Source: Octopus vulgaris
Taxonomy: Eukaryota
Assembly: GCA_951406725.2 (NCBI GenBank)
Contig: OX597830.1
Location: 15,500,001-15,564,000, forward strand
Reading direction: 5' to 3'
Length of the DNA stretch: 64,000 nt
Shown: positions 32,804-51,550 of the stretch, piece by piece
Position numbering within the stretch: the first letter of the stretch is position 1
Layout of the letters: the number at the start of each line of letters is the position of its first letter
Translations under genes and position numbers: made by a program
Notes under the pieces: generated by a model
What the model was told of the DNA's origin: nothing
Seen by the model: the letters and a program-made list of their open reading frames with translations, nothing else
The model's database searches: none

Positions 32804-32844
<41 letters not shown>

Positions 32845-32845
32845 A

Positions 32846-33041
32846 ATGTGACCTCGTGTGTACCGTTGGCGATTTTTTTTCCTCCGTCTTCCTTTCTTTG
32901 GATCTTTCCTTTTCCTATGTTTCTGACGAAGAGTTCCGCTCGAAACATTAAACCCTCCTTATTTCCTTCTTTCCTGAGCATCCAATAACACCATACTTGT
33001 TCCACATCCTCACGTTGTTGTGTTTTCATGTTTGGATTAAC
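32846..33041 (+). mobile_element. short hammerhead-bearing element family H1 (Penelope-LTR/retrozyme-like)
   Basis: Homologous to 46271-46472 and flanked by (TA)n. Contains a decayed hammerhead at 32919-32953. Confidence 0.7.
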
Positions 33042-33329: not shown

Positions 33330-33377
<48 letters not shown>

Positions 33378-33779
33378 CAAAATGGGACAAGAACGCAAAA
33401 CATTCAGAAGACGATACAAAAATCACGAACGGGTCATTCGAAGCCTTCGATCTTCAGTCAAGAACCGGATCATCCTTGCAATTTCGGCTGGTTATACTCG
33501 AGATTGCTCTAATCTGGCCAGCCCCAAGGAAAAACTAAGCTAAGTGCATTAGATTCCTTGGAAAAAAAGCTTCGAATGTATACGAAACAAGGACAAAAAA
33601 AATGGACAATGTTACATAGATAGATAGATATAGATATAACATGCATGAGTGTGTGTGTACATACAGAAATATATGTGTATGGGTCTGCGCTGACTGCAAA
33701 TCTAGAATTGCAATCTCTCTCTTTCTCTCTCTCTATGAATTCTAGTTCTTCAGACCTCAGAATTCTTTGTTATGAAATT

Positions 33780-38500: not shown

Positions 38501-38840
38501 TAACACAGCCAAGACTGATCAAGTACCAGCTTGGGTCCCAGCAGCAACATACAGACCTGTTCTCTATCCAGTTCTAATAGTAGAAATACTTGCAGCTTCT
38601 GCAATGGAATGTATGGCCACTCCTTGCTGCACTAGTAATTCCAGTGCCGTCAGAGCTTTGCAGCCTACTTTAATTGGCTGCTGCATGCCCACAAGCCTTA
38701 GCTTCTGCACTGATCAACTGGCTCCTGGTATTAGGCTGGCTTTCTCTCATAAACCTGCTCCATGGTTTTTCTTAAGGCACAGTCAGCTCATTCATGTGTG
38801 TGTGAGAATATGTTTATAATTATGTGTGTGTGTGTGTGTG

Positions 38841-38960
38841 TCTCCTTCTGTAGAAGAGCATAGGCTCGAAATGTAAAAGACTTTTTCTATTCCTGAGCAT
38901 TATACTAATACATCTGTTTGTTTTGTACACCACCTGTCTTCGTCTTTTCGTAAACTCTCT
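38841..38960 (+). mobile_element. short hammerhead-bearing element family H2
   Basis: Near-identical to 47750-47880. Hammerhead-like motif at 38844-38879 with CpG decay. Confidence 0.7.
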
Positions 38961-39799
38961 CTCTCTATATATGTGTGTGTGTGTGTGTATATAAGTATGT
39001 ATATAAATATATGTGCATATATCTATAAATCATGGAGTGATGTGTCTGTATTGTTTTTATGTCAACTTATATATAACAATTTACCATCAAACTTAAGGAT
39101 TACTTTTTGTACAGTACAAGTCCATAGAATGTCTACAAAGAAAGAGTTGACTGTACCTTTGAAGTTTTGGCTTGCTTACCTTTGTCAGACTGTGCAAAAG
39201 CAAAGTAAATCTAAACTTCAATCTTTGTCATTCTTTGCCATGAAAAATTTTAATATGGTAAAAACAAGACTGGAGATTTATTTTTAGAATTACTTATATA
39301 ATTTCAGAAGTAACTCTCCTGTCTTGGGTTTTTATTTTTTTTTATGTTTACTCTGTGGCTTTTGTATCTATGGAGACCAGTAACAAGAAAGTTTGATGAA
39401 AGAAGATACGTTCTCTTCACAGATTTTTCTTTTGTAATGTAACCGCATACATGAAGTTCTATATACTGATTATATATTATATGCACTTTTTATTTACACT
39501 ATATCAAAATATTTAAGATTTTACTAACACATACGCATATATATATCTAAAAACTATCTACTGTCTTTCTCTCCGACCACACATATACAATATCCCTTCC
39601 GATGCTATTCTATGCATATTCTGTATCTTCCAAACATATACCAACACCACTTCTGACATCATCCCAAAGACATTTCTCTTCTCCTTTATATACATATATA
39701 ACCTACTCATCCCTAGCTCATTTTCTATCTCCCACACCCAACTAGGATCCCTTTTTTACCCTGCCCTCCCTATTGTAACACCTACCCTTCTTTTCCTAC

Positions 39800-40090
39800 A
39801 TCATGTTTCTCATTGGATCTAACCACTACTCTGTATAACCAACTCATTCATCTGCACCTGTACCAATCTCGTTTGCTGCATAAAATCCTCCCTCTGCAAC
39901 TCCCAACATGCTGAAGACAGACTGAATAACACTTGTCTAACCACATTACCAAATATCTACATGATATCTATCTTGACTGTACATGTGTAGCCCTACACTA
40001 ATTCCCCAGAGTTTTTCACCAACATGAACAAGAACTCATTTTCAGTCTTCAAACTTTCATCGCTAATGTGCCCAGCTATATTTCCTTTAG
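39800..40090 (+). pseudogene. decayed Penelope-like element, GIY-YIG endonuclease remnant
   Basis: FICTCTNLVCCIKSSLCN (cf. TCxSxNxxYxIxCxxC) and EQELIFSLQTF (cf. the E..WI..L.T..P.GLN end). Confidence 0.5.
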
Positions 40091-45503: not shown

Positions 45504-46022
45504 AAACCTTGTGACAGCATATCCTTCTGATCAGAGGAACGTTGGTGACCTGCTCACCTAGCCAACGCGATAGCATTGTTCAAAAGCTAAAACACAGCAA
45601 AGCACATTGTGACCAGCGATGTATAACAACATCCGATAGTCTGGTGGATCAAGTGATATCAATATCATGATATATATATATATATATATATGTGTGGGTG
45701 TATATATGTTTTTATTAGCATAACGATCCTCCCAAGATACATACATATTACATACATTTATGTGTGCTTTTCCTAAACCTACTCAGTTACAAGCTGTGAC
45801 ATTGCAGTCATTTGCTTTGTCAACAGACCGTCAGACTGTTTTGTAATGTCTAGAGACTTGCAGAATAAAATATACTCTTTTTTGACAAACTTTTAAGGAT
45901 TAGCAATGGGGAGGATATCCAGCTGTTAAGTATTGTCTCAATAATATATTTGTCTAACCCATCCTGGCTTGGGAAAATGGATGTAAAGGTAAAAGTGATG
46001 AAGACCTACAGCCATTTATATA

Positions 46023-46174
46023 TATATATATAAAATATTAGAAAAAACCCCACCTTTTATCAATTCAAAATGAATAATCAAATTACACCATCTAGAAAAT
46101 TACATATAATAGATGGTGTAATTATTCATTTTGAATCGATAAAAGGTGGTTTTTTTTCTAATATTTTATATATA
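46023..46174. repeat. fold-back inverted repeat, ~65-70 bp arms, ~15 nt loop
   Basis: tataaaatattagaaaaaaccccaccttttatc.attcaaaatgaataat..tacaccatcta is mirrored at 46110-46174. Confidence 0.92.
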
Positions 46175-46270
46175 TTATATTGTATGGAATTTGATTTAGT
46201 ATTTCTAAATTGAATTCTTTTTCCTTGTAAGTTTGGATTTTATTCCCTCAAATAATAATTATACATATAT

Positions 46271-46468
46271 ATGTGACCTCGTCTGTATCACTAGCGTTTT
46301 TTTTTTCCCTGTCTTCCCTTCTCGGGATCTTTCTTTCTCCTATGTTTCTGACGAAGAGCTCCGCTCGAAACGTCAAACCCTCCTTCTTCCCTTCTTTCCT
46401 GAGCATCCAATAATACTTTATTTGTTCCACGTCCTTGCGTTGTTGTCTTTTTGTTTTCTTGTTTGGAT

Positions 46469-46472
<4 letters not shown>
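46271..46472 (+). mobile_element. short hammerhead-bearing element family H1
   Basis: Second copy of 32846-33041. Ends ttggattaac|(TA)n. Confidence 0.75.
46344..46378 (+). ncRNA. minimal type I hammerhead ribozyme motif (intact core)
   Basis: GTTT-CTGACGA-A-GAGC-tcc-GCTC-GAAAC-GTC-AAAC: stem I GTTT/AAAC, stem II GAGC/GCTC, palindromic stem III AC/GT, GUC triplet. Predicted cut after 46374. Confidence 0.75.
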
Positions 46473-46512
<40 letters not shown>

Positions 46513-47755
46513 GACATGTATATAGATAATTATATATATATGTACATTATAAAGACATTCCATAATTTTGAATTCCCTTATATATAAATATGTTAGCATA
46601 TGTCTCTGATCACCGTATAAGGTATGTAAAAATGTATATTGTTCCTAAGAATATAATTACCACCACCACCATCATCATCTCTTGAGTAATTCTGACTAGT
46701 TTACATTCTGCATATAACTAAGTTATATTTGGGTCAAATTTCACTGTAGTACTTCTTCGTTACTAGTCACTCCTTACTCTTAGCTTTATTTATCAAAATG
46801 TTGACCTTTGTATTCCATCCAGACTTCGCCTCCATAGCCACCCCACTTCTCCTGCCCTTCTCCACCCTGTCGCTTCTTTTGCTCTCCACCCAACTGCTCC
46901 AGCTACCCTATCTTTAGCTCCTTCTTATTCATTTTTATTTTCCTCCCCACTCACTCCTCAACTTCCTCTCTCTCTTCCTTATTTACCACTCACTTTCTTC
47001 TTTGCTGTTTCATTCCATCAACACACTTTTGTATCATTTCCTTCCCGCTCCTTCTTCTATAACAAAACCAAGATGAATTGATGCAGTTTCACAGCTTCTG
47101 AAATGCATTTTCTCTGATGAAGCTTAATAAACTGTTACTTTACTGAAACAACAGGGACCATGCTGCAAGAACACAAATAGACCGATTTAGGAAATATTCT
47201 GTATTCAGCATCAAGTTCTTTCGTAATTGTGGACTAACAACAACCAAACCAGAATTTTTCATCATATCAACTGATATATGTGTGTCTGTATGTTTCTATG
47301 TATGTATGCATGCATTTATATATTGAAGGATATTAAAGCACTTGCTCAACCCAAAGGACATCCTTAACTCCAGCACAGAGGTCTTTGGACCTTGCTTGTA
47401 CTTCAGGAAATTCCTGTTGGTGTCCTGGGATCCACATAATAACAGGTTCAATTATGAGTAGCGGCCAATAGGAGACAATGCTCTATTGTGGACATAGAGT
47501 CACAAAGTCTTTTCTTCCTCCATTTCCTAGAGAGGTCATAGACCTAGAGTCTGAAGAAATGCTGTAAAGATGCGCTTTAGGGATATGAAACCCAGGTTAA
47601 CCCCATAGACCTACCATATTTATCTTTACCTATATATATATGCTCCTCAGCTAGGGATCAATGCTAGATGTGTCAAAACAATTGTGATTAATAAATTCTT
47701 ATATACTCCATCTTCCATCTTTCATTTACCGTCTCTCCTTGTTTTTTCTGTGTCC

Positions 47756-47791
47756 CTTTCTGTAGAAGAGCGTAGGCTCGAAACGTAAAAG
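47756..47791 (+). ncRNA. minimal hammerhead-like motif with non-canonical CUGUAGA core (in family H2 element ~47720-47880)
   Basis: CTTT-CTGTAGA-A-GAGC-gtag-GCTC-GAAAC-GTA-AAAG. All three stems are intact. Confidence 0.6.
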
Positions 47792-48558
47792 ACTTTTTCT
47801 ATTCCTGAGCGTTATACTAATACATCTGTTTGTTTTGTACACCACCTGTCTTCGTCTTGTTTTTTTCGTAAACTCTCCCTATATGTGTATATATATATAT
47901 ATATATATAAGCAACTCTATGCTATTTATTGAGGGGGCCAATATATGTCTGATGAGGGGTCAACAGACCATAAAACTGTCTGTCAGGGGACTCCTCTCTT
48001 CTACACAACAGGTGTATAAAACGGATGTTTGATGTCTTATTTAAGCCACAGTAAGGTTTTACTAAATTTAAATTTTATTCACTTCATCTAATTTATACTG
48101 TATTGTGCATAAATAGATATTGTTTTAATTAATGACAAGCCTTCAAAAAAGTGCAACTATGCAAATTAGGTTAACCACCCCAGTGGTAACCTTAGTCATG
48201 ACTGCTTTATATGCAGCTGATCTATATTAGGGATGTGCTCTCTAGAGAGCCTACAAATTGTTAAATATGATTACTTTCAGGCTGTATAATATTAAAATTA
48301 TGTGTGTCTGTGTGTAGCTATGTATGTATGTGTATGTAGCTATGTGTGTGTTTTTGTGTGTACATATCTAAATGTGTGTATATTTGTATGATTTTGGATA
48401 TATGATATACATGTACATATATGCATCATTTCACTTTTAAGGTAGCGAGGTGGCAGAATAGTTAGAGCTTCAGAAAATTGCTTTGCATCTATTTTTGTGG
48501 CAGTGCTCCAGCAAGGCCACATACTCTAGTGGAAACCAGTAATGGAAGTAATAAAAGA

Positions 48559-51398: not shown

Positions 51399-51437
<39 letters not shown>

Positions 51438-51469
51438 TTTATTTTAAGCAGCAGAAAATTCAACAAAAT

Positions 51470-51507
51470 CTGTTACTCTGAGTTTCTCGTTGCCGTTCAT
51501 CAGACAG
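51470..51507 (-). ncRNA. type I hammerhead ribozyme motif
   Basis: Minus: CTGT-CTGATGA-ACG-gcaa-CGA-GAAAC-tcaga-GTA-ACAG. Canonical core, GNRA loop, stem III ACTC/GAGT, one mismatch at the base of stem II. Between (TA)n tracts. Confidence 0.7.
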
Positions 51508-51519
51508 TTTTTGCTAGAA

Positions 51520-51550
<31 letters not shown>

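Follow-up and report, generated by a model that had tools for sequence, protein, structure and literature searches.

The window analysed here, a stretch of 64,000 nt from the 2.8 Gb, microsatellite-rich genome of Octopus vulgaris, contains two copies of a short repeat on the forward strand, at positions 46271-46472 and 32846-33041. As the preliminary description of this sequence had noted, both copies are about 200 bp long and end in the same sequence, GGATTAAC, followed by (TA)n; their mutual identity is 84% (blastn). For the first copy the target microsatellite spans 46473-46499 (+), and the fixed 3′ junction, expressed as a 23-nt pattern, has 8,735 exact matches genome-wide. The second copy is older, belongs to a GUU lineage and lies between two (TA)n runs; by blastn and alignment it reaches back to 32840 (32840-33041) if the TTCAAA start is counted.

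The copy at 46271-46472 carries a minimal type I hammerhead motif at 46344-46378 (+), for which cleavage is predicted after 46374. Stem I (4 bp) is formed by GUUU (46344-47) and AAAC (46375-78) and is followed by the core CUGACGA (46348-54), one extra A (46355), stem II (GAGC-UCC-GCUC, 46356-66, 4 bp), GAA, and a stem III that consists of the loop-less palindrome ACGU (46370-73), with C17 at 46374. Stems, core, palindrome and the GUC site are as first described. This was the sole strict hammerhead match of our pattern scan in the window, and local dinucleotide shuffles produced 0 of 100. Stems I and II, the extra nucleotide after A9, the G10.1-C11.1 pair and the palindromic, loop-less stem III are the features of minimal type I hammerheads; those reported by Cervera and de la Pena (2014, PMC4209133) likewise have a short stem I, an extra nucleotide between 9 and 10.1, G10.1-C11.1 and a palindromic 15.2-16.2. 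In the copy at 32846-33041 the hammerhead is decayed (ACAU in stem III, GUU-type site).

We found five clear hammerhead-like motifs from three families in the window (46348, 32923, 47760, 38848, and 51503 on the minus strand) plus a repeat with CUGAAGA near 33.4 kb, so the earlier count of about eight motifs was too high. A sister family, family 2, was located at 47721-47880 (+), with a CUGUAGA (A6U) core and a GUA site, and at 38837-38962 (+), where stem III is decayed. The third family abuts (TA)n at 51430-51530 (-) and has a CUGU/ACAG stem I, a near-palindromic stem III and a GUA site; relatives of it with CCGA cores, arranged as inverted pairs, are present in loci L032 and L045. The CUGAAGA motif near 33.4 kb lies in a further (TA)n-abutting repeat family (33370-33520, -), without the standard downstream GAAA arrangement and with 9 blast matches in the fetched loci. 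Directly upstream of the copy at 46271 lies a repeat (46010-46260) with a near-perfect inverted repeat of about 150 bp; it gave 29 blast matches in the fetched loci, including a complete copy in L009. The best 150 of 733 rows of an Rfam search, swamped by microsatellite miRNA models, contained no hammerhead.

In order to identify the parent of the repeat, we searched the genome with the copy at 46271, which returned at least 3,000 candidates; the 40 that were scored had 94-100% identity. Of 30 copies retrieved by DNA similarity, 29 are followed by a TA run (read by eye), and 10 of 30 fetched copies extended upstream via a 135-bp segment into CA-rich sequence. In locus L032 a 5′-truncated unit shows the order endonuclease ORF, 2.6-kb CA-rich UTR, module (96% identical to the window copy) and (TA)n. 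The endonuclease of L032 as query yielded 15,164 candidates, and many of the 150 scored had open frames of 884-1,009 aa. Among 20 fetched stretches, the young copies carry a module on either side of their ORF, and tandem copies of the element lie 6.2 kb apart on contigs C10 and C16. The full-length unit of about 6.2 kb thus consists of pLTR, ORF, CA-rich 3′UTR (about 2.7 kb) and pLTR, and the window copy is homologous to both pLTRs. ORF-bearing copies of its own subfamily (GUC/AAAC) are L032, L047, L048 and L050-L052, with 88-96% identity to the window copy; the high-identity endonuclease copies L045, L046 and L049 had no downstream module within the stretch taken.

The element encodes a single protein (P0002, 950 aa) with reverse transcriptase (RT) motifs, the linker CSRSRCNTC and then GIY-YIG. 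Pfam matches to RVT_1 (E 0.0012) and GIY-YIG (E 0.013) were both below the curated cut-offs. The linker, found in P0001 as well, corresponds to the CX2-5CxxC motif that precedes the endonuclease in the Neptune clade, which is also described as having a single ORF with RT plus GIY-YIG at its C-terminal end, an insertion bias towards microsatellites and pLTRs in partial tandem (Craig et al. 2021, PMC8557442). By these features of motif and target the parent can tentatively be classified as a Neptune-type Penelope-like element; the CA-rich, low-complexity 3′UTR of about 2.7 kb, which brings the unit to 6.2 kb, differs from what is described for the clade. Most of the ORF is represented in contigs of four sequencing runs that we guess to be RNA; starts, ends and strand are unreadable from these contigs.

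Among the copies the 3′ junction is fixed and the 5′ ends vary. The young-type 3′ junction has 1,002 exact matches, compared with the number given above for the old type. We counted 79 exact internal pLTR junctions; at internal junctions the young element reads on as ATTATA-CC, which places TA-like microhomology at its 3′ junction. Upstream repeats are variably 5′-truncated. Five copies with at least 84% identity in 396 kb of arbitrarily placed stretches extrapolate, with a wide error, to about 35,000 genome-wide. Our data demonstrate that the unit of about 200 bp is the 3′ terminal repeat (pLTR) of an autonomous, approximately 6.2-kb Penelope-like element. A chance juxtaposition of ORF and module is untenable, because modules flank the ORF in full-length copies. 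The preliminary description had raised a terminal repeat of full-length Penelope elements as something to look for by BLAST, and the module indeed closes and flanks ORF-bearing copies. It had also read the family as non-autonomous, Penelope-derived or retrozyme-like, and inserting at TA microsatellites. Penelope origin and (TA)n targeting were borne out; non-autonomy was not, since ORF-bearing copies of the same subfamily exist, and neither was the retrozyme reading, since short arrays were absent from the fetched loci. A GIY-YIG remnant at 39.8 kb, cited earlier in favour of Penelope ancestry, does exist as a weak, decayed match (39835-39897, +), for which a pairwise search over 600 bp aligned 21 aa with P0001 at 52% identity (E 5.6e-6), and has no physical link to either copy; with the whole parent protein as query, nothing in the window, this remnant included, reached E<0.01.

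Some layouts only mimic those of full-length or tandem elements. What looks like the 5′ pLTR of L049 results from an insertion of its own into the same TA run, and independent copies nested in one (TA)n run were seen at L049:6240-5960 (-), L300 and L023. At G000:C1:119858906-119867970 four 3′ ends of the young subfamily, each followed by TA, lie about 3 kb apart, possibly a tandem of 3′UTR units without ORF.

The window copy differs from its relatives in the hammerhead core. Core tallies were counted by hand from the first listed matches, on the first contigs. For its subfamily (398 exact matches, first 100 listed) we counted 94 CCGACGA, 4 CTGACGA and 2 CCAACGA; the canonical core that the window copy keeps is absent from 96 of these 100 sister copies. 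In the same order, among the matches listed, the tally was 95/4/1 for all GUC forms and 68/26/6 for the larger GUU group (11,820 matches). The tally of the GUC forms resembles the decay at other CpGs in the same listing, and the T at 46349 (U4), where 94 of the 100 sister copies have C, is most likely a CpG-type change after insertion. The C at this position also dominates in contigs of four runs from four organisms. The proportions in the GUU group imply that an older lineage had the canonical core, and still older relatives have CUGAAGA. With canonical cores this rare in the subfamily (4 of 100), a cleavage assay on the window copy would test an atypical one. A U4C change is known from a viroid, where it is weak but viable and "considerably decreases activity in vitro" (PMC3088659).

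A large genome-wide repertoire of hammerheads, as suggested before, is confirmed by 32,763 exact genome matches to one relaxed pattern. The first 100 listed have 14 canonical, 21 CCGA, 60 CUGU, 3 CUGC, 1 CCGU and 1 CAGA cores, so that 86 of 100 are non-canonical. Family 2, which is about as abundant as the focal family, has a CUGUNGA core and a GUA or GUU site, and shares stem II and the downstream motif CUGAGCG with it; its pattern has 5,021 exact matches, and none of 100 listed has A at position 6. The genome patterns preset the conserved positions, and only the alignment between families tests conservation. Between the window type and the young subfamily 34 of 35 positions are identical inside the motif and 102 of 155 outside (p 4e-5); against family 2 the values are 27 of 35 and 70 of 139. 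C3-G8, G5, A9, G12-A14, A15.1-U16.1 and the palindrome have been retained in the diverged families, and stem I shows one compensatory change, G-C to C-G. Between diverged subfamilies the motif is thus better conserved than its flanks, which we take as selection on it. In the young subfamily stem I has lost one pair to a U-U mismatch.

In silico folding predicts that the monomer misfolds: the core GACG pairs with CGUC (-9.9 kcal/mol versus -4.6 for the hammerhead fold), and the z score of -0.82 corresponds to low self-pairing. Cofolding of two cores did not return a dimeric hammerhead, a type of dimer that the program represents poorly. Dimer cleavage of minimal hammerheads was described by Lunse et al. 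2017 (via the reviews PMC6765202 and PMC7761336).

Considering all data, we favour, with a probability of roughly 0.62, the view that the repeat is the pLTR of an abundant, (TA)n-inserting autonomous element for whose minimal hammerhead only weak cutting is predicted, which likely requires a dimer or the element's own protein. The RT-endonuclease would nick (TA)n, and reverse transcription would start internally, at the junction of pLTR and leader, and proceed towards the 5′ end of the RNA. Internal initiation of this kind, at the pLTR-ORF junction, was shown in vitro for the Poseidon element PAc of Anolis, in which the hammerhead cuts only in the presence of protein and RNA left uncut serves as the main template (Frangieh et al. 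2024, PMC11167929). Copies of about 205 bp, both window copies among them, would derive from RNAs that begin at an internal start site of the pLTR; those of 78-99 bp would derive from RNAs that the hammerhead closest to the bound protein has cut, and long and full-length ones from tandem RNAs produced by read-through. Most masters carry the attenuating U4C core, and most templates may therefore stay uncut.

These classes can be followed in the 5′ ends. A map against a single reference had hinted at a hot spot, with subfamily divergence and true ends inseparable, and all-versus-all mapping was confounded by the (TA)n flanks; we therefore mapped the ends by profile. Ninety older copies were chosen by their 3′ junction alone (the first on C1, two listed matches skipped; L084 and L227 among them look like one duplicated locus). 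Of their 5′ ends 40 fell at -10 to +10 of one site, 13 further upstream and 37 further downstream (rate ratio 17), which fits the earlier notion of a discrete unit of about 200 bp. The cluster sits at a TTTCA motif that is kept in most subfamilies, and both window copies (about 205 bp) belong to this class. Promoter and start site of Penelope lie in its pLTR (PMC2377424), and on this basis the cluster is likely to represent a transcription start. A splice acceptor was rejected as its cause, as most subfamilies have no AG there, and TA microhomology was judged unlikely, as more TA-like stretches elsewhere in the module gather few ends.

Only 4 of 90 copies of the young autonomous subfamily start at this site. 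Counting the copies that reach it, 40 of 53 older but only 4 of 67 young ones begin there, and the formation of by-products alone does not explain this difference. One possibility is that the unit of about 205 bp has become SINE-like, in which case an internal promoter would drive transcription of solo pLTRs and the Neptune protein would copy them in trans. The prevalence of a short form with a defined 5′ end in the older subfamilies, its rarity in the young one and the estimated copy number are all in line with this, and non-autonomous pLTR derivatives have been described for Chlamys (PMC8557442). We nevertheless regard it as doubtful, given that several short-copy lineages have long counterparts that reach into the 3′UTR, and that the Anolis protein depends on sequence located downstream of where it initiates (PMC11167929), which solo copies lack. 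For the older subfamilies it can be true together with the origin from a weakly cutting, autonomous element that we prefer.

In the young subfamily the predicted cut lies before module position 118. Six of the first 30 young copies started at 118-139; this interval was picked after these copies had been seen and was then fixed for 60 new ones (six listed matches left out, four of them in one tandem). Of the 60, 11 started at 118-139, 0 at 140-190 and 3 at 12-117 (rate ratio 25, p 4e-8). Pooled, 17 of 90 young terminal copies start 0-21 nt past the predicted cut, one of them exactly at the cut and the others 4-21 nt behind it. Upstream repeats before ORFs, which have the same structure, gave 0 of 30 starts in this interval (Fisher p 0.006). 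In the older subfamilies, to which the window copies belong, 7 of 90 started in the equivalent interval, a weak excess (rate ratio 2.4, p=0.056). The pile-up in the young subfamily lends indirect support to cleavage in vivo, which would probably be protein-assisted.

The same ends could also arise without cleavage. Given the same pLTR origin, the motif may be a silent or nearly silent relic that is kept as an RNA structure, and the copies of 78-99 bp may stem from abortive early reverse transcription or from a stall at the hairpin formed by GACG/CGUC and stem II, whose 3′ base is predicted to coincide with C17. In both families the ends lie behind the cut and reach no further than CUGAGCG; in family 2, read by eye, the short copies (4 of 30) begin 14-24 nt past the cut, next to this motif and not at the cut. 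The U4C or A6U/C-type cores of 86 of 100 listed motifs and the stem I pair lost in the youngest subfamily would likewise suit a relic, as would the Anolis system, in which hammerhead mutants insert normally in vitro (PMC11167929). Against a relic stand the core positions and palindrome kept across diverged families, the upstream edge of the cluster, which equals the predicted scissile bond, and the identical hairpin upstream of ORFs, which stops none of 30 copies. This last control argues against a purely structural stall, not against an effect in the initiation phase. Altogether we consider a relic unlikely and retain the weak hammerhead of an autonomous pLTR. A retrozyme, in which short tandem repeats would yield circular RNAs by hammerhead cleavage, shares with our repeat the type I hammerhead in a short non-coding sequence, but is highly improbable: the fetched loci had no short head-to-tail arrays (one TA-separated pair of different subfamilies only), the hammerhead is minimal and not canonical, the ends are fixed 98 nt downstream of the cut, and self-pairing is low.

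A bolder version of the preferred reading, to which we give somewhat less than an even chance, is that an active Neptune-type element has U4C, stem-I-mismatched hammerheads which do act in the germ line, cutting only in the copy beside the protein-bound RT start. The 5′-truncated insertions would then be a fossil record of cleavage, cleavage would cap the number of transcripts that give long copies, and tens of thousands of variants would have been missed by searches for CUGANGA.

Minimal hammerheads in metazoan Penelope-like pLTRs, dispersed from truncated elements, have been published (PMC4209133), and our motifs are similarly mostly single and dispersed, with some in both pLTRs. The propagated motifs differ from the published consensus CUGANGA (and a U3-A8 variant) by the cores CCGACGA (U4C) and, in family 2, CUGUNGA (A6U); the searched passages of one supplementary file of that study contain no octopus or CCGA-core row. 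Like PAc, the octopus element has a pLTR hammerhead upstream of the RT start and AT-rich targets, and, in our reading, uncut RNA as main template; it belongs to a different clade, and for PAc the RNA-seq data contained no reads with ends at the cut (PMC11167929), whereas here the genomic 5′ ends of one subfamily cluster just after it. Metazoan non-LTR retrozymes (PMC7229834; bioRxiv 10.64898/2026.07.22.740005) are also short, non-coding, related to Penelope-like elements (PLEs) and equipped with type I hammerheads, but occur as tandem arrays with mostly canonical hammerheads, in contrast to our repeat, a terminal fragment that is dispersed and whose parent is autonomous. Our literature search, which could not include subscription papers or supplements on bioRxiv, returned no account of genomic 5′ ends located at the hammerhead cut of a PLE and, for U4C, the viroid case only and none in PLEs; Lunse et al. 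2017 may already list U4 and A6 variants. In the passages of PMC13282606, a paper on repeat annotation in octopus, the word ribozyme does not occur. In the literature available to us we found neither U4C and A6U cores across whole families nor the asymmetric pile-up at the cut.

With its intact ORFs, variant core and insertions just past the predicted cut, the young family is a concrete testable system, and comparing the 5′ ends of terminal and upstream repeats offers a general method; should the cleavage reading fail, an ordinary Penelope terminal repeat is left. In the modules of L041 and L032 a possible outer helix joins an upstream CUCGGGA (CGCUCCGGGA in the young subfamily) with a downstream UCCUGAG(CG). 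It is present in the fold of 46315-46410, and its 5′ arm is absent in family 2.
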